A stretch of 64,000 nt of DNA, taken from Thermoanaerobaculia bacterium. GTDB lineage: Bacteria; Acidobacteriota; Thermoanaerobaculia; Multivoradales; Multivoraceae. Positions 14,841 through 61,791 of this stretch are shown here, one piece after another. The first letter of the stretch is position 1, and each line of letters opens with the position of its first letter. The translations under genes and the position numbers were made by a program. The notes beneath the pieces were generated by a model. That model searched no databases. It was not told where the DNA came from and was given only the letters and a program-made list of their open reading frames with translations. The DNA is taken from positions 4,032,001-4,096,000 of the forward strand of contig OY761158.1 of the NCBI GenBank assembly GCA_963664405.1. The letters run 5' to 3'.

Positions 14841-16556
14841 ATGAAGCCCAGCAATCGGACAAGAATTTTCAGCCTCGCCCTAACTCTACTGGTTGGTGGG
14901 CTCGCGTGTTCGACGGATTCGCCTACGGAACCGGTCCAGACCCCGGCTCCGGGTGCCCCGGGTGGCGGTACACCTAGTGGCACGTGGAATATAAGCATTA
15001 CTTCGAACCGTTCTCAGCTTGAGGTTGACGGTCTGAATGCACGCATTAGCATTCGCGTTACCGATGCCGAGTCGGGCGCCCTCCCGCCTAACGGCGCGAG
15101 TATTTCGCTCGGTACGAGCCTTGGCGACTTCGAATCTGAGGGCAGCGGCATCCAGTCAGGCATCCTCGAGCTCTTCACAGGCAATGTTCAGGTTGCGCTT
15201 TTCCCCGGCAGCGAGGAGGGTACTGCGAGGCTGCAGGCTCAGCTCGAGGGCAGCGTCGGACAGCTGAACTTGCCGATCACGGCCGCCGGCGGCGACGAGC
15301 CCATTCCCACGGCCCTCTTCGTAGATCGGGTGGATCCAAGCTTCGGCAGTCCCGATGGCGGCGAGACGGTGAGAATCCTCGGCCAGGCTTTCGAGGAGCC
15401 GGTGCGCGTCTTCTTTGGCGGGGCTCCTGCTCAGGTTCAGTCGGTCAACTCTGGAACTATCCGTGTGATCACGCCGCGCAACGACACCGTGGACCTGGGC
15501 GATGTCCTTTCGGTCGACGTCGAGGTCCAAGTGAATGTCAACGAGGCGGAGCAGAGCTCCGATACCCTGGTTTCTGGCTTTACCTACACTCGCGGCGCCC
15601 TCGATCTCCAACCCGTGATCTTCTCCATCACACCGAACTCCGGGCCGAACGAGGGTGGCACGCGTGTCACCATCAACGGTGATGGCTTCTTGGCTCCGGT
15701 TCAGGTGCTCTTCGAGTCTCTCGAGGCTACGGTCGAGTCCGTTAGTCGGACCCAGATCGTGGTCTTGACTCCGGCAGCGACTGGCTTCGGGCAGGCGCTC
15801 CGGAACAGTCAGGTCAACGTGGTCGTGAGGAATCTCGAAAACGGGCTCACCTCCGATCCAGGTCTGTTCACGTACGGAGTGAGTCTCCTGGTCACCGCGG
15901 TAGACCCCAATACAGGCCCCTACTTCGGCGGGACCAACGTCACCATCTTTGGCCAGGGCTTTGACGAGCCTCTGGTTGTCGACTTCGGTACCGTGCGCCA
16001 GCAGGTGATCTCGGTCACTGGCACTGAGATTCTGGTGCGCACTGTCGGGTTGCTGGGTAGCGGAAGCTGCTCCAACTCGTCGCTGGGCTCTAACGTTACG
16101 AATCTGGAGACAGGTGAGACCGCTTCCGGGCCTCCGTTTATCTACCAGGAGATCCAGCTGAGTCCGTCCATTTCCGGAGTCTCGCCCTCACCGCTGAGGC
16201 AAGCGGGCGGGGTCGTGACCATCAGTGGGCGGAACTTCTTGGAGCCGATCGAGGTTACTTTCAACGATCGACCGGTGGAGATCACCAGCCTGTCCGAGAC
16301 ATCCATCACGGCCACGCTCCCTGAGATTCCCAACAGCGATCTCGACGCCGAAGATTGCAACGACAACGGCGACTCACAGGACGGCGAACGCTACATCACG
16401 ACGCCCTTCGATCTGGTTGTGGCGAACTCAGACACGGGTTGCTCCGACACCTTCTTGGTCAACGTGACCCCGAACAACACCAGCTGTCGGGATGACGTAG
16501 CGCCTGTCGAGGACGAGCCGACTCCGGTTCCGACTCCGACGACGGAGGCGCCCTAG
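14841..16556 (+). CDS. Lipoprotein with an Ig-like domain and about four IPT/TIG repeats
   Basis: Lipobox GLA-C; repeats VDPSFGSPDGGETVRILG, ITPNSGPNEGGTRVTING, VDPNTGPYFGGTNVTIFG, VSPSPLRQAGGVVTISG. Confidence 0.85.
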   Translation: MKPSNRTRIFSLALTLLVGGLACSTDSPTEPVQTPAPGAPGGGTPSGTWNISITSNRSQLEVDGLNARISIRVTDAESGALPPNGASISLGTSLGDFESEGSGIQSGILELFTGNVQVALFPGSEEGTARLQAQLEGSVGQLNLPITAAGGDEPIPTALFVDRVDPSFGSPDGGETVRILGQAFEEPVRVFFGGAPAQVQSVNSGTIRVITPRNDTVDLGDVLSVDVEVQVNVNEAEQSSDTLVSGFTYTRGALDLQPVIFSITPNSGPNEGGTRVTINGDGFLAPVQVLFESLEATVESVSRTQIVVLTPAATGFGQALRNSQVNVVVRNLENGLTSDPGLFTYGVSLLVTAVDPNTGPYFGGTNVTIFGQGFDEPLVVDFGTVRQQVISVTGTEILVRTVGLLGSGSCSNSSLGSNVTNLETGETASGPPFIYQEIQLSPSISGVSPSPLRQAGGVVTISGRNFLEPIEVTFNDRPVEITSLSETSITATLPEIPNSDLDAEDCNDNGDSQDGERYITTPFDLVVANSDTGCSDTFLVNVTPNNTSCRDDVAPVEDEPTPVPTPTTEAP

Positions 16557-16683: not shown

Positions 16684-16849
16684 CTAGACCAGCGTTTCCA
16701 AAGTTCGCGTACACATCTCGGCCCCTTCTGCCCGCTGGCGGTGTTACGCCTCCTCGATATATTGCCCAATATGCCTGCGTCGGCGCGCCTAGCCAGCGAA
16801 CAGAATGACCTCGAGCTATGCAGCCCGAACTTTGGAAACGCTGGTCTAG
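16684..16849 (+). mobile_element. 166-bp CTAG-bounded palindromic element E1
   Basis: Perfect 24-bp IR ctagaccagcgtttccaaagttcg; inner IR ttctgcccgctggc/gccagcgaacagaa; core shared with E2-E4. Confidence 0.85.
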
Positions 16850-16901
16850 AGTCATCTTCCCGCTAGACGCTCGTGGCAGTCGCTGCGTATACTCCAGTTG
16901 A

Positions 16902-17816
16902 ATGCGCAAGGGACTTCTAGCGTGCCTCCTTGTGCTCGCGCTCTTTGGTTGCGACAGCACGAGTCCAGTGGCGCCCGAGGGTGCCCTCGTCGACATTTCG
17001 GTGAGCCCTGACCGCATCACCTCTGATGGCGAGGCGGCAGTTACCGTTCTTGCTCGGAAGTCCACGGGCTTTCCCGTCAACCCCGGCACTGTCGTCTTCC
17101 TGAGTACTACCCGTGGCCTCATCGCCGAGCGCGGCGAGACGGATGAGACGGGCCGGGTACGGGCGACTCTCTACGGTAATGGCGCCGTCGGTACCGCAAC
17201 GGTGAAGGCGACTACAGGCGCGGCCGAAGACGCCGAAGTCGAGGTTCAGATCGGCATCTTCGCCGGATCGGTCACATTGCAGACCACGCCGTCGACAGTG
17301 GCTGAGACCGGCGGCACTATAGATCTTCTGGCCTTGGTTCGAGACGACTTGGGCGAGCCCCTCCCAGACGTGCTGGTCAATTTCACCAGCCAGATAGGTG
17401 TTCTCGAAACCGGGGGGGATTTTGTACGGACTGATGGAGGGGGTAGGGCGACAGATGTCCTCACCGTCGAGGAGGGAGAGCTCGACACTGTAAACGGCGA
17501 CACCTTCATGGTCGGAGTGGAGGTGTCGGGGAACGACGGAGCTCTACTCATTCGTGAGCAGACCGTCACCGTCCAGCGGCGGCCGATGGCCGACTTCACC
17601 ACCAGTGTCAGCGGCCTGACGGTGGTCTTCGACGACACCTCGACGGGACGCCCGACGAGCTGGAGATGGGAGTTCGGCGACGGCAACAGCAGTACGCTGC
17701 AGAATCCTTCCCACACTTATGCCGTGCCCGGCACCTACACAGTGACTCTGACTGCGCGCAATAGCCTGGGCGAGGACACGCGCAGCAAGATCGTCGCCGT
17801 CACCGGCAATAACTAG
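16902..17816 (+). CDS. Lipoprotein with two Big-1-like Ig domains and a C-terminal PKD domain
   Basis: Lipobox LFG-C; TDETGRVRATL and TDGGGRATDVL; PKD motif SWRWEFGDGNSSTLQNPSHTY..PGTYTVTL. Confidence 0.85.
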   Translation: MRKGLLACLLVLALFGCDSTSPVAPEGALVDISVSPDRITSDGEAAVTVLARKSTGFPVNPGTVVFLSTTRGLIAERGETDETGRVRATLYGNGAVGTATVKATTGAAEDAEVEVQIGIFAGSVTLQTTPSTVAETGGTIDLLALVRDDLGEPLPDVLVNFTSQIGVLETGGDFVRTDGGGRATDVLTVEEGELDTVNGDTFMVGVEVSGNDGALLIREQTVTVQRRPMADFTTSVSGLTVVFDDTSTGRPTSWRWEFGDGNSSTLQNPSHTYAVPGTYTVTLTARNSLGEDTRSKIVAVTGNN

Positions 17817-17979
17817 TACACGCGGCCATAAATACGGACACGTTTGGAGCGACGCTGCATCCTCTCCAGCAGCGTTGCGCTCCCTGCGGCGTACTGCCAG
17901 GTACGCCTCAGTCACGCGCCTTGCTGGCGAGGCGCTTCGTCGCTCGAAACGTACCCGTACTTATGGCCGCATGTACTAG
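17813..17979 (+). mobile_element. 167-bp CTAG-bounded palindromic element E2
   Basis: ~42-bp imperfect IR (ctagtacacgcggccataa.../...ttatggccgcatgtactag); left CTAG contains the stop of the PKD gene. Confidence 0.85.
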
Positions 17980-18053
17980 CCTTTCCGGACTCTCTCCTCG
18001 GGCGGGGGAGAGGTGGTGCAAACACGCCTGCTATAGTGAGCGGCCCCTTGCGG

Positions 18054-22600: not shown

Positions 22601-23908
22601 CTATCCGCCGGGTGCTAGAAGCAGCGAGACGGAGTCGCCGTCCGAGACTTCTGCCTCGGCAGCGAGGTCCTCGACGTCTGTAGTGGAGGCGCTGCCATCG
22701 CTATCGAGTCGCGCCGAGAGCAGACCGCTGGTCGGCAGCGGTCTGCCCAACATTGAGTCGCGCTGGTCCAGGTGCACATCGAGCGGAAAAGCTGGCGAAT
22801 CGATTCTCCTTACCGCCGCGGGTGGGCCTGGTTCGGGGGTGCGCAGGAAGACGAAGAGCACGGCTCCGGAGGGGATCGCCGCCGCCGAGGGGACTTCGAT
22901 CCGAGCACTGAACTCGGGGCCGCTAACGGCCGCGGTGCTCAACTGCGGCGGCGGAGAAGACAGAATCTCGTCGGCGTCTGCCCCGGCCTCCGCCATCGAC
23001 ACGAGCTGCTGCAAGCCGGGGTGGGCGCCCCCGGAGGCTTCGAGACCCACTCGCCAATCCTCGATGGCGGCTTCTCTGTCCCCCTCACGCATCTTGGCTA
23101 TGCCGCGCACCAGACGCGCGCTGATGAAGCGAGGCTCCTGGGCGAGAGCTTGGTCGAGTAACTCGATAGCTTGTTCCATATCCCCCATCGTCAGGCGGAC
23201 CAGACCCTGAAAGTAGAGACCGTCGACATCGCCGGGACGCTGCTCGAGAAGAATCTCGCTCTGGGTGTACGCTTCAAAGAAGAGGCCTTCGAGAACATAG
23301 ACCTCGGTAAGCGCCTTGCGAGCGTCGATGTCGCCGGGATTCTGCTCCAGCCGCGCCAGGAGCGAGGTTGCCCTCGCCCGAGCCTGAAGAGAGAGCTGTT
23401 CGATGGCCGGGTGATTAGTCTCTCCGAGGTTGCTATTTCCGGCCATTGGCGGGGTCTCGACGGGTGCCGGTGTCGCGTCGCGACCGGCCCAGAAGACGAG
23501 AGCGCCGATGAGAGCGGCACTAGCGACACCCATGGCGAATCCGAGGAGCGCCGACTTCCTGCCTGCTGGCCGAGGCTCGTCGGTGCTCGGTTTGTGCTTG
23601 CTCTCTCGTGACCCCGTCAGTGGAGATTTGACCCCGATCTCGTCCAACTGTTTGAGGACCCGCGCGGCGGCGAGCTCCAACTCGCCCCTGTCGACGTCGT
23701 CGAGCTCTTCATCGCTCGCTCCCTGCAGCCGCTTGTAGATGTCGTCTCGGCGAAGCTCGAGGTCGGTCGCGAGCAGGCGAAGATCTGCAGAGCCTTTCCC
23801 CTCTGAGCGTTTGCGGCTCGCCGCGCTGCGAAGTCTCAGCGCGGCGATGGCACCGACGGCGAGACCGATGGCGAGGATGACGATCCCGGGAAGAAAGGAT
23901 GTGCCCAC
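22601..23908 (-). CDS. ccmI: CcmI/CycH-like TPR protein of cytochrome c maturation
   Basis: Two TM segments, TPR region, C-terminal VLFVFLR..GPPAAV..FPL..DSML..SARLD domain; last gene of the ccm operon. Confidence 0.7.
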   Translation of the reverse strand: MGTSFLPGIVILAIGLAVGAIAALRLRSAASRKRSEGKGSADLRLLATDLELRRDDIYKRLQGASDEELDDVDRGELELAAARVLKQLDEIGVKSPLTGSRESKHKPSTDEPRPAGRKSALLGFAMGVASAALIGALVFWAGRDATPAPVETPPMAGNSNLGETNHPAIEQLSLQARARATSLLARLEQNPGDIDARKALTEVYVLEGLFFEAYTQSEILLEQRPGDVDGLYFQGLVRLTMGDMEQAIELLDQALAQEPRFISARLVRGIAKMREGDREAAIEDWRVGLEASGGAHPGLQQLVSMAEAGADADEILSSPPPQLSTAAVSGPEFSARIEVPSAAAIPSGAVLFVFLRTPEPGPPAAVRRIDSPAFPLDVHLDQRDSMLGRPLPTSGLLSARLDSDGSASTTDVEDLAAEAEVSDGDSVSLLLAPGG

Positions 23909-24075
23909 TAGTGGACCGTAACACTCGAACGTTTAGTGGCTGAGTGAGTCATTCGTGGTCGAGATCAAGGCGCGCTGACGCAGGCATATCGGGGACTATG
24001 TCGAGGAAGCGTAACGCAGAGATCGGCCGCGAGGGCCGCTCAGGCGCTAAACGTTTGGGTGTTACGGTCCACTAG
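23908..24075 (-). mobile_element. 168-bp CTAG-bounded palindromic element E3 between ccmH and ccmI
   Basis: IR ctagtggaccgtaacac..aacgtttag; reverse complement carries the core gttacgcttcctcgacata..tatgcctgcgtcagcgcgccttg. Confidence 0.88.
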
Positions 24076-24587
24076 GAGTCCACCTCCGAGCGAACTCGCT
24101 GCAAGTACTCATCGAGGTCCGGGTCGTGGCTCGGCGATGAGTCGGATGCCACTGCCAGACGTCTACGGATCAGGTAGAGACCGAGTGCAACGACCAGCAC
24201 CGGGGCAAGCCAGACCAGCAGGTTGAAGCCCTTCGCCTTGGGTTGCAGAAGCACGAACTCACCGTAGGAGCGCTCGAAGTAGTCGAGAATCTGGCTCTGT
24301 GTGTAGCCTTCGGCCAGGAGATCCCGCACCTGCGAGAGCATGGTGATGGCCGACGCACTAGGCGAGTCGGAAATCGGGAGTCCTTGACACACCGGGCAGC
24401 GCATGAGGCTTCCGACCTCGAGAGTTCGGCGAGTGAGCTCCTCGCCCTCGACAGGAGATCCGGCGGGCTGGCCCAGCAGCGCGGCGACATCAATGCTCGG
24501 TGTCTCTTCCTGGGCCACAGCCGTGGTCGGCGTCGACAGGAGCTCCAGAATCAGCAGAGCCAGCGCCACCGATGCCTTCGGAGTCAC
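24072..24587 (-). CDS. ccmH: Cytochrome c maturation protein CcmH
   Basis: MRCPVCQ, YGEFVLLQP, LLVWLAP. Confidence 0.93.
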   Translation of the reverse strand: MTPKASVALALLILELLSTPTTAVAQEETPSIDVAALLGQPAGSPVEGEELTRRTLEVGSLMRCPVCQGLPISDSPSASAITMLSQVRDLLAEGYTQSQILDYFERSYGEFVLLQPKAKGFNLLVWLAPVLVVALGLYLIRRRLAVASDSSPSHDPDLDEYLQRVRSEVDS

Positions 24588-33266: not shown

Positions 33267-33331
33267 AAACCGGGACGCTGAGAGCGGGAGAGCCTAGCAG
33301 CGGTTCATCCGCTGGCGCGCGCCCTCCTGGG

Positions 33332-33731
33332 CTTGGAGCGTGTCAGAGTATTCGGCCAGAGCCGTTTCCCGGAGTGAATAGGAAGCAACGCCTGAGTGCG
33401 CCGTCCTCGGCGCCAAAAGACAACTAGGTGGGGCGCGCCTAGCGGAGGAAATGATAGCCATCATTTCTGGAGCCTGGGAGCGTGTCCGAGTATTCGTTCT
33501 GAGCCGTTTCCCGAAGCGAATAGGAAGCAAAGCCTGAGTGCGCCGTCCTCGGCGCCAAAAGAACTAGGCGGAGCAAATGATATTCATCATTTCTGGAGCC
33601 TGGGAGCGTGTCCGAGTATTCGTTCTGAGCCGTTTCCCGGAGCGAATAGGAAGCAACGCCTGAGTGCGCCGTCCTCGGCGCCAAAAGACAACTAGGCGGA
33701 GGAAATGATAGCCATCATTTCTGGAGCCTAG
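33332..33731 (+). repeat. Three tandem type-B units (142, 126 and 128 bp) between convergent genes
   Basis: Units start at 33332, 33474 and 33600: ggagcgtgtccgagtattcg...gcgccgtcctcggcgcc...gaaatgatagccatcatttc; ends at a CTAG that is the stop of the minus-strand gene. Confidence 0.95.
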
Positions 33732-34663
33732 CTCGTCTCGAACCACCTCTGCCCGCTGCCGAACTTCGTATTCAGGGTGGCTCCGACTCCAACCAGGGTG
33801 GCGGCAGTCCACGCCCATCCCCCCAGCCAGGGAGCGAACTTGACGAGCCCCAGAACGAGCACGCCAAGGCACGGCGGCCCTAGGAGGTTCCCGCTCCGGC
33901 TGGAGTAGTGCCGCCAGATCGAATCGCCTAAGGCCATGAAGACTGCCGCCATGCCCCAGAGTTTGAGCACGAGGGCGGCTAGTACGACAAGGGCGAGCAG
34001 CGGGATCCCTACCAACACGCCGACGAAAGTGCTGAAGAAGAGGACGGTGAGGAGCAGTGCGAGCACAGCCACCAGGCCGGTCGTGAAGTTGTGCAGCGGC
34101 TCTTGCGAAACGCTCAGTGCGGTGGTTCTCGCCGCCGGTGCGGCTGCTGCCAGGATCACCAAGAGGGTCAGCACCCAGGCCGCGAGTAAGGCCAGCTTGG
34201 CGCCGATGACGGTAGGGGACCATGGCGAGAAGCCCAGCGCCGGACCCTCCGCCAACACCAGTAGCGTGCTCGGCGCCGTCGGATAGGCAACGCTGCGACC
34301 TCGGAGTGTCGCTCCTGCCGCGACTTCGATTCTGCCTCCGAGAACGAAGACGTCGCCACCAACCGTGGCCGAAGAGGTCAGGCTGACGTTCCCGCCGATC
34401 ACGACAAGGTCCCCCTCGGCGACGCCGGAAACCACGATCGACCCTCCGACTGCAGTCACCCCGGCAATGGCCCTGCCTTCGACTTTGACATTGCGGCCAA
34501 GCGCAACTACCTGACTCTCGGCGACGCTACCTTCTTCGATGAGGATCGCAGTGAGCTCGGCAGCGTCACTGGCGCCGGCCGCGACGGAGCCGATCAGGAT
34601 TAGCCACGCGACCAGGCCGACCCGCGCAGCAGCTGTCAGCAGGTGAGGCACTGTTGGAATCAT
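33728..34663 (-). CDS. Membrane protein with N-terminal beta-helix (polymer-forming cytoskeletal-like) repeats
   Basis: V.A.GG.V.V.G repeats (VVALGRNV, VTAVGGSI, VVIGGNV, VFVLGGRI) followed by several TM helices. Confidence 0.75.
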   Translation of the reverse strand: MIPTVPHLLTAAARVGLVAWLILIGSVAAGASDAAELTAILIEEGSVAESQVVALGRNVKVEGRAIAGVTAVGGSIVVSGVAEGDLVVIGGNVSLTSSATVGGDVFVLGGRIEVAAGATLRGRSVAYPTAPSTLLVLAEGPALGFSPWSPTVIGAKLALLAAWVLTLLVILAAAAPAARTTALSVSQEPLHNFTTGLVAVLALLLTVLFFSTFVGVLVGIPLLALVVLAALVLKLWGMAAVFMALGDSIWRHYSSRSGNLLGPPCLGVLVLGLVKFAPWLGGWAWTAATLVGVGATLNTKFGSGQRWFETS

Positions 34664-41096: not shown

Positions 41097-41174
41097 AGGC
41101 CCGTAGCTCAGCTTGGTTAGAGCGCTACGTTGACATCGTAGAGGTCAGCGGTTCAAGTCCGCTCGGGCCTACCA
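41097..41174 (+). tRNA. tRNA-Val(GAC)
   Basis: Acceptor aggcccg/cgggcct plus ACCA; anticodon arm ctacg-ttGACat-cgtag; GGTTCAA T-loop. Confidence 0.97.
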
Positions 41175-41233: not shown

Positions 41234-41310
41234 AGGCGCTTAGCTCAGCTGGTTAGAGCGCTACCTTCACACGGTAGAGGTCAGCGGTTCGAGTCCGCTA
41301 GCGCCTACCA
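41234..41310 (+). tRNA. tRNA-Val(CAC)
   Basis: Acceptor aggcgct/agcgcct plus ACCA; anticodon arm ctacc-ttCACac-ggtag; GGTTCGA T-loop. Confidence 0.97.
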
Positions 41311-47325: not shown

Positions 47326-47414
47326 GAGGTCGTCCCTGGGCGACCTGCGGGTCCCGAGCCCTATGCTATAGTCGACTCCGTTTCGAGCCCCATGAGGGGC
47401 TGGAAATGTTTGTG

Positions 47415-47705
47415 ATGGCACGAAAGAGTACGACCACGGTGGAGGTAGAAATCTTCGGAGCTACCTACCACGTGAGAGGCGACAACGACGGAACGTATCT
47501 CGAAGAGCTGGCGTCCCTCGTGGACGGAAAGATGCAAGAGATAGCAGCGCATCTGGGCACCTCGGATCGGACCAAGATTGCCATTCTTGCCGCTCTGAAC
47601 ATTGCCGATGAACTGGTTCAGTCAGGATCTGATCTATCGGCAGAGAGGGAGACGGCAGTCACGAAGGTAGCGGAACTTACCGGCGAATTAAGCCAGGCCT
47701 TGTGA
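47415..47705 (+). CDS. zapA: Cell division protein ZapA
   Basis: VEVEIFGATY, VDGKMQEI, AILAALNIADEL. Confidence 0.93.
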   Translation: MARKSTTTVEVEIFGATYHVRGDNDGTYLEELASLVDGKMQEIAAHLGTSDRTKIAILAALNIADELVQSGSDLSAERETAVTKVAELTGELSQAL

Positions 47706-47753: not shown

Positions 47754-47942
47754 GCATTCCCTGTGCGGTTGGTGATGAATCAGCCTTTTTGTAGAACCAA
47801 CATTATTACTAAGGGAGTTCTTCACCCGCGCGGTCCGTGCCAGCCCCGCTTGAACGGGGACGCTAACGACTCGTGGAGAGGACACCCACCTACTGCGCGT
47901 TCGGTTCTAACGCGGGGGTTCACACGGCCCCGCGGGGAATGC
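47754..47942 (+). ncRNA. ssrS: 6S RNA
   Basis: About 189 nt; closing stem gcattccc/gggaatgc; A/T-rich bubble (gaaccaacattattactaaggg); canonical position between zapA and rny. Confidence 0.85.
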
Positions 47943-50390: not shown

Positions 50391-50570
50391 CGTCCTCGGC
50401 GCCAATGTGCCGCAGCCGTAGGAAATGATAGCCATCATTTCCGTAGACGCGCCGTCCTCGGCGCCAATGTGCCACAGCCGTAGGAAATGATAGCCATCAT
50501 TTCCGTAGACGCGCCGTCCTCGGCGCCAATGTGCCACAGCCGTAGGAAATGATAGCCATCATTTCCGTAG
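50391..50570 (+). repeat. Three tandem 62-bp units (type C) with a GTAG-flanked hairpin
   Basis: cgtcctcggcgcc at 50391, 50453 and 50515; gtag-gaaatgat-agcc-atcatttc-cgtag in each unit. Confidence 0.95.
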
Positions 50571-58638: not shown

Positions 58639-58693
58639 GCCGGGCGCCTAGGGCACTTGATTCGTGCGTCCCGAATGGAGCCATGAGAGAAGG

Positions 58694-58910
58694 CTAGGCT
58701 CCAGAAATGATGGCTATCATTTCCCGCCTAGTTGTCTCTTGGCGCCGAGGACGGCGCACTTGGGCGTAGCTTCCTATTCGCTCACGGAAACGGCTCAGGA
58801 CGAATACTCGGACACGCTCCTAGCCCCGGAAAGCGGGCCTCCGGCCCGTTCTCCGGCCCATCCCCCCCTAAGAACTACTCGCGTGTCCGAATACTCGGAC
58901 ACGCTCCTAG
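58694..58910 (-). repeat. One type-A unit joined to one type-B unit, reverse orientation, CTAG-bounded
   Basis: CTAG at 58694, 58820 and 58907; 58820-58910 matches the 87-bp unit at 2219; 58694-58823 matches the unit at 33600. Confidence 0.93.
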
Positions 58911-60307
58911 ATGCCGCTGGAGGTCAGCACGCTCCTGATCGTGCGCAGGAGGATGTAGAAATCGAGCCAGATGCTCCAGTTGGCGATGTAGGCGAGGTCG
59001 TAGCGGACCTTGGTCTGCGGGGTCGAGAGATAGTCGCCGTGCACTTGTGCTAGGCCGGTGACTCCCGGCGTGACGCCGAAGCGTTTGGCGTAGCCGGGTA
59101 CCGAGTTCTCGAACTCGTCGGCGAAGCCTGGGCGCTCCGGCCTTGGCCCGACCAGACTCATCGTCCCTGCCAATACATTGAAGAGTTGAGGTATCTCGTC
59201 GATCCGGTAGCGGCGAAAGATGCGGCCGATGGGGGTCACACGGGGATCGTCCGGAAGAGCCATTGCCTCCCCGGTCCCCTGCTCGGCCCCAGTGCGCATG
59301 GTTCGAAGCTTGTGGATCGTGAAAGGAGCACGACTCCTACCCAGTCGAGTCTGCTGGTAGAAGATCGGGCGACCCGAAGTGATCAGCGCGGTCGCTGCGG
59401 CGAGAAGCAGAACCGGGCCGAGGAGGGCCAGGAGTCCGGTTGCGCAAACGAGGTCCATGCCTCTCTTCAGAGGCCGATTGATTCTCCACTCTGCTTCTCG
59501 CGCAACCTCGATCAGCGGGTTATCCCCGACCCAGTAGTATCGCGTTCCCGCGAGCAGGCTCTCGAAGGCACCAGGGAGGAGCCAGACGTTGCCTTTGGCC
59601 GGCGCGATGCGAGCCACTCGGTCGATGAGTCGGGTCTGCCATGGGTAGCTCTCACTGGCCAGGATGACGTCATCGATGATCCCGTCTGCGATCAGGCCGG
59701 GCGCGTCTTCCGTAGTTCCGAGTACGGGCTCGAGCTCCGACTCACCAGTCCCCTCGGACGAACCGGGTGCCCGGATGAACCCAGCTAGCTCGAGGCCGTG
59801 GTGATGATGGCTGCGAAGACTTTCCGCCATCGCCAGCGCTGTGCTTCCGCCGCCCACGATAGCGACGCGTCGGACCCGCGGTGGGTGGAGGCGGCGAAAG
59901 AGCAGGCGCCACGCAAAGAGAAGGGCGCAATTCAAGGGCACGAAGAGGACCAGGATGGAGCGGGGAAAAACCGCTTCGCGCAAGAAGTAGTAGCCCATCA
60001 GCATCAGCCCCTGGAGGCAGACGGCGGCGACCAGACGCTGGAGTAGCTCGATGCGGGCTGAAACACGGGGAGGTTCGTAAAGCGCGAAGAAGTAGAGAGC
60101 CACGACCTGCGTAGCGAGCACGAGAGTCCAGTTGTCGAGGAAGAAGCCCAGCCGATCCCCCGGAAGAAGGTGATCGGTCAGTGGGATCGGGATGTAGAGC
60201 CGGATCAGAAAGGCGAGGAGGAAAGCGCAAGGCCCGACAACGAGATCGCCGGCGACTCGTAGTCGTCTCCAACCGCGCGGGAAGAAGCCCTCTTGCGTCA
60301 TCGGCAC
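58907..60307 (-). CDS. Polyprenyl-phosphate glycosylphosphotransferase (WcaJ/WbaP-like sugar transferase)
   Basis: KRGMD, KLRTM, DDPRVT, DEIPQLFNV, SLVGPRPE, PGVTGLAQV. Confidence 0.95.
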   Translation of the reverse strand: MPMTQEGFFPRGWRRLRVAGDLVVGPCAFLLAFLIRLYIPIPLTDHLLPGDRLGFFLDNWTLVLATQVVALYFFALYEPPRVSARIELLQRLVAAVCLQGLMLMGYYFLREAVFPRSILVLFVPLNCALLFAWRLLFRRLHPPRVRRVAIVGGGSTALAMAESLRSHHHHGLELAGFIRAPGSSEGTGESELEPVLGTTEDAPGLIADGIIDDVILASESYPWQTRLIDRVARIAPAKGNVWLLPGAFESLLAGTRYYWVGDNPLIEVAREAEWRINRPLKRGMDLVCATGLLALLGPVLLLAAATALITSGRPIFYQQTRLGRSRAPFTIHKLRTMRTGAEQGTGEAMALPDDPRVTPIGRIFRRYRIDEIPQLFNVLAGTMSLVGPRPERPGFADEFENSVPGYAKRFGVTPGVTGLAQVHGDYLSTPQTKVRYDLAYIANWSIWLDFYILLRTIRSVLTSSGI

Positions 60308-60474
60308 CTAGTGTCCTGTATCAGTAGTTCCTCACACAACTCGCTGGCCCTTTTGCGCGCTGCCGTCGTTTCTCCTCCTCGCAATATTGCTCAATATACC
60401 TTCGTCGTAGCGCCTTGGCAGCACCCAAAATGACTGCGCGATTTATGCAACGAACCACTGATACAGGACACTAG
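60308..60474 (+). mobile_element. 167-bp CTAG-bounded palindromic element E4
   Basis: IR ctagtgtcctgtatcagt(a/g)gttc; inner IR ttttgcgcgctgcc/ggcagcacccaaaa; shared core. Confidence 0.87.
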
Positions 60475-60588
60475 CGTGGTTGGACTATAATTGCGGACCA
60501 ATCTGAGGCGGTGGGTGACGTCTCTCGCCAAAGGGTGTCGCTGCGTTCTCGAGTCGGTGCCCGCCGCTGCAGACCCTCAAGGCATGTC

Positions 60589-61542
60589 ATGAAAGTCATC
60601 GAGCGCTTGGCCGCAGCGAGCCGTCCACTGATCTCGTACGAGATCATTCCACCGGTGCGTGGCGGGACGCTGGGTAAGCTGCTGTCGCTGATCGAAGATC
60701 TGGTGAAGTACGAGCCGCCTTTCATCGATATCACGAGCCATGCTGCGGAGGTCAGCTACGACCAGTCGCAGGGCGCGATCCAGCGCCGGGTGAAGCGGAA
60801 GCGGCCGGGAACTCTCGGCGTCTGTGCCCTGATCCAGAACAAATATCACATCGATGCGGTCCCTCATATTCTGTGCAACGGTTTTACGCGCGAAGAGACG
60901 GAAGATGCGCTCATCGAGCTCAAGTACCTTGGCATAGAGAACGTCCTCGCGGTACGAGGCGACGATCACGGTTATCAGAAGCCGTTGCTGAACGGGCGGA
61001 CGGCCAACCGTTACGCGATCGACCTGGTTAACCAGATCGTCGATATGAACGCGGGACGCTATGTCGAGAGCAACCTCGTTGATGCCGAGCCCTCTGATTT
61101 CTGCGTTGGCATATCGGGGTATCCGGAGAAGCACTTCGAGTCGCCGAACCTCGAGAGTGACGTTGCTTGGACGAAGAAGAAGGTAGATGCCGGTGCTCAC
61201 TACATCGTCAGCCAGATGTTTTTCGAAAACCGTCACTTTTTCGAATATCTCGACGCATGTCGTGGCCTGGGGGTCGATGTGCCGATTATTCCCGGGCTCA
61301 AGATTGTGACCTCCCAGGCGCACGTCAGCTCGCTGCCCAAGACCTTTCATGTCGATCTTCCCCCTGCTCTCAGCGACGCGGTCAGCGCGGCAGAAGACAA
61401 CCGGGAGGTGCGTGAGATCGGAGTCGAGTGGGCCTTCCGGCAGGCGGAGGGTCTACTGAACCACGGCGTACCTTCGATCCACTTCTACATCCTTCAAAGC
61501 TCCGCGGCAATAAAACAGCTGATGGAGCGGTTGTCGATCTAG
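60589..61542 (+). CDS. metF: 5,10-methylenetetrahydrofolate reductase
   Basis: SYEIIPP, FIDITSH, VPHILC, LAVRGD, GYPEKH, SQMFF, IHFY. Confidence 0.93.
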   Translation: MKVIERLAAASRPLISYEIIPPVRGGTLGKLLSLIEDLVKYEPPFIDITSHAAEVSYDQSQGAIQRRVKRKRPGTLGVCALIQNKYHIDAVPHILCNGFTREETEDALIELKYLGIENVLAVRGDDHGYQKPLLNGRTANRYAIDLVNQIVDMNAGRYVESNLVDAEPSDFCVGISGYPEKHFESPNLESDVAWTKKKVDAGAHYIVSQMFFENRHFFEYLDACRGLGVDVPIIPGLKIVTSQAHVSSLPKTFHVDLPPALSDAVSAAEDNREVREIGVEWAFRQAEGLLNHGVPSIHFYILQSSAAIKQLMERLSI

Positions 61543-61791
61543 CCTACGGGAATGATTGGTATCATTCCCTCCGGCTAGAGAACATGGCGCCGAGGACGGC
61601 GCATTTTCGGGAGTTCGGGAGAAGATTAGGGATCACGTCCTCCGGGTAGAGAACATCGCGCCCCTACGGGAATGATGTGTATCACTCGCTTTGGGTAGAG
61701 AACATGGCGCCGAGGACGGCACTTTCTTGGGAGTTCGGGAGAGATTAGAGATCACGTCCTCCGGGTAGAGAATGTGGCACCGAGGACGGCG
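61543..61791 (-). repeat. About two degenerate 120-bp units (type D) sharing hairpin modules with types B and C
   Basis: ctacgggaatgat..atca at 61544 and 61664; ggcgccgaggacggc module three times; starts right after the metF CTAG. Confidence 0.88.

Follow-up and report, generated by a model that had tools for sequence, protein, structure and literature searches.

Four hairpin elements in a 64,000-nucleotide stretch of a Thermoanaerobaculia bacterium genome (GCA_963664405.1, contig OY761158.1, positions 4,032,001 to 4,096,000; hereafter "the window") are best explained as non-autonomous, MITE-like DNA transposons, which represent four subfamilies of one old, multi-phylum superfamily and are mobilized in trans. 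We put the probability of this reading at about 65%. The elements (E1 to E4) have a trait that is unusual among gene-less mobile elements, namely, a conserved folded center that is stable on one strand only.

RESULTS

Four palindromic elements occupy intergenic CTAG sites

The initial annotation had described four end-to-end palindromes of 166 to 168 bp with CTAG at both ends, and our analysis confirms all four at 16684..16849 (E1), 17813..17979 (E2), 23908..24075 (E3), and 60308..60474 (E4). Their inverted-repeat arms rank first to fourth in length among the inverted repeats (within 400 nt) of the window, with lengths and complementarities of 24 nt and 100% for E1, 42 nt and 88% for E2, 37 nt and 89% for E3, and 37 nt and 84% for E4. 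The window has fewer CTAG sites than expected (97 vs 156); therefore, the presence of CTAG at all eight element ends is not due to chance.

All four elements are intergenic with respect to the 54 ORFs called in the window. E1 (166 bp) lies between a TIG-domain gene (14841-16556, plus strand) and a PKD/Big_1 gene (16902-17816, plus strand), with putative TA duplications at 16685-16686 and 16847-16848; it carries the central motif on the plus strand, and its better-folding strand is the minus strand, on which the apical conserved domain (16743..16792) forms two internal loops and a variable hairpin. E2 (167 bp) has a diverged core, folds better on the minus strand (diverged apical domain at 17874..17923, minus strand), and abuts the PKD/Big_1 gene so closely that the stop codon of the gene is the TAG of the left CTAG (17814-17816). 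E3 (168 bp) carries the motif on the minus strand and folds better on the plus strand (apical domain at 23966..24015, plus strand). It lies within the ccm operon, between a TPR/CycH-like gene (22601-23908, minus strand) and ccmH (24072-24587, minus strand), whose stop codon, the complement of 24072-24074, falls inside the end of E3. Finally, E4 (167 bp; better-folding strand minus; apical domain at 60368..60417, minus strand) separates two divergent genes, encoding a sugar transferase (58907-60307, minus strand) and MTHFR (60511-61542, plus strand). The earlier suggestion that E1 and E2 bracket the PKD gene like a cassette is not supported: the two elements belong to different subfamilies, each with its own CTAG pair, and their sole tie to this gene is a shared landing in intergenic CTAG sites.

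The structured interior is shared across many phyla

E1, E3 (on the minus strand), and E4 carry exact copies of the shared central motif noted previously, and E2 holds a diverged version of it. Within the window, the downstream part of this motif occurs with no mismatches only in E1, E3, and E4; two further matches require three mismatches, which is at chance level. The GGCCC...ATGAC feature is likewise present in E1, E3, and E4, as proposed, and recurs in many relatives. Using a profile HMM and a covariance model, we found exactly four copies in the window, with scores of 141.4 (E3), 136.3 (E1), 133.2 (E4), and 100.3 bits (E2), E1 to E4 themselves being in the training set. The interior consists of a mid-helix motif and the apical domain (two internal loops and a variable hairpin), and it is conserved as structure. 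We rejected coding potential of the core, since the hairpin loop varies in both length and sequence and no frame is conserved.

A scan with the core pattern matched at least 110 loci which, among the matches listed, come from about 70 assemblies labeled as more than 10 phyla. The profile HMM matched 109 of the 110 listed loci and the covariance model 97 of the 99 searched with it; conservation of the core letters among pattern-found loci is partly forced by the search pattern and is unforced only in secondarily found copies. By their labels, the carriers among the matches listed include Acidobacteriota, Thermoanaerobaculia, Gemmatimonadota, Planctomycetota, Desulfuromonadales/Geobacteraceae, Myxococcota, Omnitrophota, Chlamydiota, Bdellovibrionaceae, Binatia, and Acidimicrobiales. 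Altogether, E1 to E4 form one homologous family that is not peculiar to the source genome.

BLAST searches of E4 and a typical copy (L017) against a plasmid collection, and of L017 against a phage collection, returned no match. No Rfam family matched the elements at gathering thresholds or at relaxed ones, where E2 alone scored against two plant microRNA-precursor models, at 53 and 52 bits (cut-offs 168 and 268 bits). We found no description of this family in the literature searched, which is not proof of absence, and the available portion of a preprint census of prokaryotic MITEs contains none; Geobacter genome papers, in the portions available, mention many unnamed multicopy sequences.

Terminal arms define subfamilies

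The initial annotation had regarded the arms as unrelated among copies, the reverse of ordinary MITEs. This view is not supported in that form: the arms in the window look unrelated because E1 to E4 each come from a separate subfamily, and members of one subfamily keep similar arms from genome to genome. Arm identity to a relative is 90% for E1 (L072), 80% for E3 (L009), and 72% for E4 (L022). Over the whole element, the closest listed relative of E1 (L072:2812-2977) is 88% identical over 172 nt with unrelated flanks, E3 resembles L009, L019, and L066 (81%, 80%, and 75%), and E4 resembles L014 and L022 (76% and 74%); E2 shares its core variant with L071:6007-6173 and L107:297-459. In addition, the arm tips follow a pattern common to the subfamilies (TA, then G-T/G-G-N-C-C-Y-G-T), and the terminal repeats thus behave as in ordinary MITE subfamilies.

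Near-identical copies and target duplications indicate mobility

In six assemblies, near-identical copies (96-100%) occur at unrelated sites, with the identity confined to the element and the similarity ending at its boundaries. Specifically, three loci of one assembly are 97-99% identical over 274-296 bp, and other within-genome pairs share 98% over 163 bp, 96% over 168 bp, or 99-100% at contig ends. Synteny and empty-site comparison between the listed loci yielded only pairs too distant to be informative. We also observed that several copies sit at contig ends.

The flanks are consistent with target duplication. In the subfamilies with GGGCC tips, the same trinucleotide flanks the element left and right in 8 of 10 copies, and this trinucleotide is copy-specific even within one genome (TTA in L047, TAA in L064 and L083). 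By our reading, 24 of the 44 full-length copies have CTAG at both ends. Such copies are compatible with a TA duplication inside CTAG, a 2-bp and a 4-bp duplication being indistinguishable here because CTAG is palindromic; these CTAG-type copies fit the strict TA duplication of IS630/Tc1-mariner MITEs (PMC2170065, in part), but their sister subfamilies with TAA/TTA do not. The family combines the features of MITEs (166-168 bp, noncoding, terminal inverted repeats of 24-42 nt with 84-100% complementarity, duplications, and near-identical copies) with a feature of IS5/PHIS elements, the 2-3-bp A/T-rich duplication in a short palindromic target.

One strand of the element folds better and its helices covary

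As written, E1 folds at -80.1 kcal/mol (z -8.1) and E4 at -60.8 kcal/mol (z -6.6), and none of 200 shuffles folds as well as either. The proposed covariation of the inner helices is borne out: in 47 full-length family members, compensatory changes occur in 31 of 35 predicted pairs, and 87.5% of cells are paired, compared with 60.1% in shuffles (0 of 500 reach 87.5%) and at most 40.9% when the partners are slid. Covariation is seen in all helices, and that of the outer arms alone could also come from terminal repeats co-evolving with a transposase.

The two strands are not equivalent. In the outer 36-nt arms, the motif strand holds 112 A·C vs 36 G·T mispairs (three to one), with more A·C in 31 elements and more G·T in 7, and with more A·C in 10 of 11 arm-sequence clusters and more G·T in none (p = 0.002). 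With RNA parameters, all 44 full-length copies fold more stably as the complement of the motif strand (mean 17.7 kcal/mol), and DNA energy parameters give the same result for 43 of the 44. For the window, the energies of the motif strand and its complement are -80.1 and -100.1 kcal/mol (E1), -106.7 and -118.4 (E2), -72.9 and -110.2 (E3), and -60.8 and -85.8 (E4). Subfamilies that differ in sequence have wobbles at recurring arm positions (17-20, 26-27, and 47-51), the unpaired positions of the better-folding strand are purine-rich, and the motif strand contains more C than G (2532 vs 1946) and more T than A (1624 vs 1240).

Taken together, the covarying helices, the A·C excess, and the better fold of the complement point to selection on a single-stranded form, either RNA or ssDNA. 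We infer that this form would be a transcript of the well-folding strand or a single-stranded DNA stage, and that the near-symmetric, purine-rich apical bubble is probably a protein-binding site. The initial proposal that mobility or function depends on a folded ssDNA or RNA shape is supported to the extent that the fold of a single strand appears to be important.

These data bear directly on a different reading, in which the family is foremost a structured RNA gene or module, a ~167-nt RNA made from the better-folding strand, with a conserved apical domain for binding a protein or a second RNA and with mobile arms that would merely spread it. The greater stability of the complement in every full-length copy, the three-to-one preference for G·U-compatible changes, the recurrence of wobble positions across subfamilies of different sequence, the purine-rich unpaired positions, and the covariation of all helices speak for such an RNA. 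However, no Rfam family matches, the elements contain no conserved promoter or terminator (the sole sigma-70-like site inside an element, in E4, has 9/12 matches and its second hexamer in the variable hairpin), and the well-folding strand of E1, E2, and E3 is antisense to the surrounding operons. Furthermore, orientation relative to flanking genes is unbiased (15 co-oriented, 17 anti-oriented, 13 divergent, 9 convergent; n = 109). A mobile copy thus has no guarantee that the right strand is transcribed, and we consider the RNA-first explanation unlikely.

Gene neighborhoods and candidate enzymes

The initial annotation had placed the mobilizing enzyme outside the window. This holds for the elements themselves, none of which encodes an enzyme, and for the 28 of 54 window ORFs scanned with Pfam, which include every gene flanking E1 to E4 and among which there is no transposase. 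In the window and the 110 listed loci (up to 8 kb each), no matching terminal-repeat pairs lie 600-3000 bp apart, as an autonomous element would have. An all-against-all comparison of 1960 ORFs from the listed loci revealed no conserved neighbor gene; the recurrent neighbors were abundant families only (sigma-54 activators, ABC ATPases, ECF sigma factors, and kinases).

If, like REPIN hairpins, the element moved as folded ssDNA with the help of an HUH tyrosine transposase (IS200/IS605-like, RAYT, or TIRYT), this would suit both the strand-specific fold, which holds with DNA parameters in 43 of 44 copies, and the layout of the whole element as one end-to-end hairpin. In CTAG-type copies, moreover, the first flank letter varies on the left only (GTAG twice and TTAG twice, small numbers), and by our reading the right side is always CTAG when intact. 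Acidobacteria are also described as having RAYT-like genes flanked by long inverted repeats, together with repeat families (PMC3733652, in the sections available). Yet, even inside a single genome, copies from one subfamily have different matched trinucleotides, which therefore appear to be genuine target duplications, and no tyrosine transposase adjoins any copy in the window or listed loci. This class of enzymes is not known to leave target duplications. Nor is orientation biased relative to local GC skew (52 vs 38 of 90, p = 0.57), a low-power test. Overall, we regard the HUH route as quite improbable.

Integron attC sites have conserved boxes at the hairpin base and stand in arrays at cassette boundaries with fixed orientation. 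That the elements are attC-like recombination sites marking gene-cassette boundaries is very improbable, for even though they keep structure more than sequence, fold better on one strand, and in E1 and E2 flank a single gene, the copies are single, scattered among housekeeping genes in either orientation, flanked by duplicated TA or TWA, and 96-100% identical within genomes, with the conserved letters central instead of at the hairpin base and no integrase nearby any copy in the window or listed loci.

DISCUSSION

Proposed mobilization and the role of the fold

For the MITE-like reading, an IS5/PIF-Harbinger-type DDE transposase that acts in trans is the most likely mobilizing enzyme. Such an enzyme, of the PHIS kind and encoded elsewhere in the genome, would bind the terminal inverted repeats, excise the element, and paste it into a TA or TWA target through 2-3-nt staggered cuts. 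Because CTAG holds TAG on both strands, an insertion at a gene end would regenerate the stop codon and hence be tolerated, which would account for the position of E2 and E3 right at stop codons.

Double-stranded cut-and-paste, on the other hand, leaves both the conserved interior and the strand-specific folding unexplained. A more speculative possibility, to which we give low odds, is that the conserved center works as a single-stranded module, that a defined strand has to fold into a rod whose bubble is bound by a dimeric protein, and that propagation proceeds via the folded transcript or ssDNA despite the TA/TWA duplications. If true, the family would be a mobile structured nucleic acid in more than 10 phyla, and its way of transposing or replicating would be one that has not been described for bacterial MITEs.

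If the transposon reading holds, few bacterial MITE superfamilies would be as widespread as this one, which is concentrated in environmental phyla that have been little studied. Elements are located within operons and directly on stop codons, so they are relevant to annotation and may be relevant to expression; they also break assemblies, as seen in the copies at contig ends. The covariance model from the present analysis can be used to annotate the family in other genomes, and the strand-specific, covarying fold offers a testable handle on a single-stranded function or intermediate in some MITEs.

Comparison with known systems

The likeness to Rickettsia palindromic elements suggested by the initial annotation is not supported when judged by position, as opposed to sequence: many of those elements sit in frame inside ORFs, according to the available sections of PMC3733652, whereas E1 to E4 are intergenic. 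We also rejected identity with Chunjie, a MITE from Geobacter uraniireducens, a host whose lineage, taken broadly, is also that of the Geobacteraceae copies of our family. As described in the available parts of PMC3184786 and PMC10969869, Chunjie is 178-235 bp long, rich in A+T, and has terminal repeats of 21 bp and direct repeats of 9 bp. Correia/NEMIS, ERIC, and RUP elements are intergenic, 100-200 bp long, co-transcribed with their neighbors, and form stable hairpins (PMC3733652, in part). They are confined to a genus or family and have constant terminal repeats, whereas the hairpin family has many arm subfamilies and one apical domain across phyla; we set them apart by distribution and repeat structure.

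REP/REPIN sequences are hairpin-forming extragenic repeats whose single-stranded form is recognized by an enzyme, and their defining feature is a short stem-loop that bears a conserved tag, GTAG or CGTC, at one of its ends (PMC3733652, in part). Our elements resemble them in being extragenic, hairpin-forming, and strand-asymmetric. In contrast to the 20-40-bp REP units, however, they are about 167 bp long, have symmetric CTAG or TWA flanks with no one-end GTAG/CGTC tag, and show copy-specific target duplications, with no tyrosine transposase linked to the copies examined.

Among DNA transposons, TA-duplicating IS630/Tc1-mariner chemistry is documented for ISY100 (PMC2170065, in part). PIF/Harbinger duplicates TWA, ISL2EU a 2-bp site, and NuwaII targets C|TNA|G, all being IS5-related according to the available text of PMC4482050. 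Unlike Tourist-like MITEs and the PIF/Harbinger-ISL2EU-NuwaII (PHIS) group, the hairpin family spans multiple phyla, conserves its interior above its arms, and folds in a strand-specific manner, and a cognate transposase was not found in the window or listed loci. Like Tourist-like MITEs and PHIS/IS5 elements, its members are short, non-coding, and hairpin-forming, with terminal inverted repeats; also as in those elements, they duplicate TWA (3 bp) or, inside short palindromic targets, 2 bp, and some subfamilies sit in the very C|TNA|G context that the same source describes for NuwaII.

The four window elements belong to one widespread family

The initial annotation had described four elements in the window, E1 (16684-16849), E2 (17813-17979), E3 (23908-24075, with the central motif on the minus strand) and E4 (60308-60474), and direct reading of the sequence confirmed their positions and appearance, with CTAG at all eight ends. 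Their arms (i.e., the outer self-complementary halves) are the four longest inverted repeats that a repeat finder detected within 400 nt in the window, with lengths of 42, 37, 37 and 24 nt and complementarities of 88, 89, 84 and 100%, respectively. When the elements were aligned, with E3 reverse-complemented, the proposed shared central motif was exact in E1, E3 and E4, while E2 carries a diverged form. The central block runs from GTT through a pyrimidine-rich hexamer, a short hairpin that varies in sequence among copies and keeps its pairing, and a second pyrimidine-rich octamer to a GC-rich run. A profile HMM and a covariance model gave four matches in 64 kb, namely E1-E4; as these four were included in the training alignment of both models, the informative part of this result is that the window holds no further match. 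CTAG itself is rarer than expected in the window (97 sites versus 156 expected).

We scanned a genome collection once, using a pattern built from the core (the shared centre) of E1, E3 and E4, and found at least 110 loci. A whole-element profile match is present in 109 of the 110 listed loci, and the remaining one, a Jiangella contig with the pattern in a non-palindromic setting, corresponds to about the one chance match expected. The titles of the listed loci, which represent about 70 assemblies (hand count of accession prefixes), name Acidobacteriota (Terriglobia, Vicinamibacterales and Thermoanaerobaculia among them), Gemmatimonadota, Planctomycetota (Brocadiaceae among them), Desulfuromonadales/Geobacteraceae, Thermodesulfobacteriota, Myxococcota, Bdellovibrionaceae, Binatia, Omnitrophota, Chlamydiota, Acidimicrobiales and unclassified Proteobacteria. 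Nearly all carrier assemblies are metagenome bins, so single taxon labels may be wrong; the wide taxonomic breadth of the family is not in doubt. By construction, the listed loci do not vary at the letters of the search pattern; 20-odd secondary copies, which were found by the models and are thus unforced, mainly keep the GTTGC block, the CGCGCCTTG block and the paired hairpin.

Among the four window copies, identity is 45-60% over the outer 40 nt and 61-80% in the core, so that the outer arms do diverge, as had been noted. Among the listed loci, the closest relative of E1 is L072 (88% over 172 nt, arms 90%), those of E3 are L009 and L019 (81% and 80%), those of E4 are L014 and L022 (76% and 74%), and that of E2 is part of L071 (77%), all labelled as other classes and phyla. 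Since each window copy has closer relatives elsewhere, the window holds four subfamilies of one superfamily, which is why the arms look unrelated. The tips (the outermost arm ends) are related across subfamilies, with flanking TA or TWA followed by G, T/G, G, N, C, C, Y, G, T. A further shared feature is a patch rich in A and T at about positions 17-24. In a second architecture, only the inner domain (~95 nt, model positions ~48-143) is present, within other or longer arms. Some Acidobacteria carry a Y-shaped version of ~275-295 bp with two oppositely oriented cores; three copies of ~272 bp from one assembly (L064:4502-4773, L047:4610-4881 and L083:4429-4699) have outer arms in common, and their two apical domains point in opposite directions. 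A planctomycete subfamily (L035:5806-5969) has CATG rather than CTAG at both ends, which suggests that this variant has another 2-bp target.

The window also contains a second repeat family, unrelated to the 167-bp elements, in intergenic tandem or mosaic arrays at 2218-2396, 33317-33732, 50391-50570, 58693-58910 and 61541-61772. Its units (87, 126 and 62 bp, 93-100% identity) start with CTAG and are assembled from modules that contain short hairpins; a module of 17 nt occurs 8 times versus 0.05 expected. This family is REP/BIME-like, and the foot of one of its hairpins is similar to the tip of a 167-bp element.

The elements are mobile and duplicate their target

Mobility and target duplication are both well supported. 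Within single assemblies, high similarity between loci ends at the element boundaries: the three Y-shaped copies are 97-99% identical over 274-296 bp, further pairs reach 98% over 163 bp and 96% over 168 bp, and three copies truncated by contig ends are 99-100% identical. The flanks of E1 and of its 88% relative in L072 are unrelated at a cut-off of E <= 1e-10. In an all-against-all comparison of the loci, no protein family recurs beside the elements except abundant regulators and transporters. Insertion orientation is even relative to flanking called genes (n = 109: 15 co-oriented, 17 anti-oriented, 13 divergent and 9 convergent, the remainder lacking a gene within 400 nt on at least one side). 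Copies in L032, L068, L091 and other loci sit at contig extremities, as expected of a repeat that breaks short-read assemblies.

In the GGGCC-tipped subfamilies, the flanking trinucleotide is identical on both sides in 8 of 10 copies and one letter apart in the other two, and it varies by copy within one genome (TTA/TTA in L047, TAA/TAA in L064 and L083); it is a true TWA target duplication. Sister subfamilies end in CTTAG...CTTAG, CTAAG...CTAAG or CTGAG...CTGAG. Window-type copies, read by eye, have CTAG at both ends in 24 of 44 full-length cases, which fits a TA duplication within CTAG, a 4-bp duplication being a possible alternative. According to a passage in PMC4482050, PIF/Harbinger elements duplicate TWA, ISL2EU duplicates a 2-bp site inside a 4-bp palindrome, NuwaII has the target C|TNA|G (3 versus 5 bp being undecidable), and all three are related to bacterial IS5 (PHIS superfamily); TA duplication of the IS630/Tc1-mariner kind is documented, in a passage on ISY100, in PMC2170065. 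From the likeness of the TA/TWA duplications to these, we infer that a trans-acting DDE transposase, most likely of the IS5/PHIS kind, would mobilise the elements. Consistent with the initial annotation, which had placed the enzyme outside the window, no transposase occurs among the 28 window proteins scanned (of 54 called ORFs), and no matching tip pairs 600-3000 bp apart, as in a full-length element, were found in the window or the 110 listed loci.

The genes clustered around E1 and E2 encode secretin, TIG-domain, PKD/Big_1 and TPR proteins. E3 is flanked, within a cytochrome c maturation operon, by ccmH and a TPR/CycH-like gene, and E4 by divergent sugar-transferase and MTHFR genes. The idea that E1 and E2 form a cassette around the PKD gene found no support, as nothing links the two, which belong to different subfamilies and have their own flanks. 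The PKD gene stops at the TAG within the left CTAG of E2, and ccmH stops at the TAG within one CTAG of E3. The terminal stop triplet serves a called gene at one end in 9 of 44 full-length copies and at both ends in none; under a looser criterion, open frames of at least 100 codons run to 15 and 8 element ends, some of which are probably antisense artefacts of GC-rich DNA. Insertion into a stop-bearing CTAG would restore the stop codon, and such sites would therefore be tolerated. TAG is commonly used in the window (62% G+C; 20 TAG, 27 TGA and 6 TAA in 53 called ORFs). Elsewhere in the window, a 6S RNA (Rfam RF00013, 80 bits) lies at 47755-47942 (+), directly downstream of zapA (47406-47705), and a pair of tRNA genes occupies 41097-41171 and 41234-41307.

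Selection appears to act on the fold of one strand

RNAalifold, applied to 47 full-length members, gives a rod that spans the element from end to end, with compensatory changes in 31 of its 35 predicted pairs, and 87.5% of cells are paired, compared with 60.1% in column shuffles (0 of 500 reach 87.5%) and 33-41% when partners are slid by 1-3 columns. The covariation score is 0.609, versus 0.158 for shuffles and at most 0.148 for slid partners, so that the covarying inner inverted repeat seen earlier is borne out. Covariation of the outer arms could instead reflect co-evolving transposase-binding ends, an argument with less force where the inner helices and apical hairpin are concerned. In the complement of the motif strand, which is the strand that folds well, the predicted apical domain comprises a small internal loop rich in A, a GC helix and, below the variable hairpin, a bubble whose two purine-rich strands resemble each other; in E3, GGCCC...ATGAC is predicted to form a helix that contains two wobble pairs and one bulged A.

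After orienting the elements by their core, we counted 112 A·C and 36 G·T mismatches in the outer 36-nt arms, besides 1272 Watson-Crick and 142 other positions. An A·C on one strand is a G·T (G·U) on the opposite strand. A·C is in excess in 31 elements and G·T in 7; when 44 copies are grouped into 11 arm-sequence clusters, A·C is in excess in 10 and the reverse holds in none (p = 0.002). The A·C sites recur at about arm positions 17-20, 26-27 and 47-51 across subfamilies of differing sequence, with the A on either arm. Folding energy (RNA parameters) is lower for the complement of the motif strand in all 44 full-length copies, by a mean of 17.7 kcal/mol; for E1, E2, E3 and E4, it is -80.1, -106.7, -72.9 and -60.8 kcal/mol as written and -100.1, -118.4, -110.2 and -85.8 kcal/mol for the complement. 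With DNA parameters, the complement is lower in 43 of 44 full-length copies, by a mean of 7.8 kcal/mol, and likewise in 22 of the 25 inner-domain copies. We read this asymmetry as selection on the single-stranded form of one defined strand, in agreement with the initial suggestion that a folded ssDNA or RNA shape matters.

The selected form may be RNA or DNA. Unpaired positions rich in purines and wobble pairs that are conserved look RNA-like, although no conserved promoter was found in the elements and, at E1, E2 and E3, the strand that folds well runs antisense to the operons around it. Single-stranded DNA acted on by a tyrosine (HUH) transposase would explain the strand specificity, and a passage of PMC3733652 reports RAYT-like genes accompanied by long inverted repeats in Acidobacteria, but the copy-specific duplications favour staggered double-strand insertion. 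Genome-wide mutational bias cannot yield the asymmetry, since insertion orientation is random relative to genes and to local GC skew (52 versus 38 of 90, p = 0.57, no bias at low power). The conserved strand-specific fold is a real extra feature, beyond what cut-and-paste transposition of double-stranded DNA would explain.

Comparison with known systems

No Rfam family matches the elements. E2 alone (17803-17988) reaches 53 and 52 bits, below the cut-offs of 168 and 268, against two plant microRNA-precursor families, most likely through long-hairpin shape only; those two families are MITE-derived. BLAST retrieved no matching record from plasmid (E4 and L017 as queries) or phage (L017) collections, and a full-text literature search, outside which lay Geobacter genome supplements listing unnamed multicopy sequences, found no description of the family. 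Chunjie is a different element, and REP/REPIN and attC each have a defining feature that is absent here. The likeness to Rickettsia palindromic elements, which we compared by description only, fails in the same way, a defining feature being absent. The family is a MITE-like superfamily, with a transposase that we infer.
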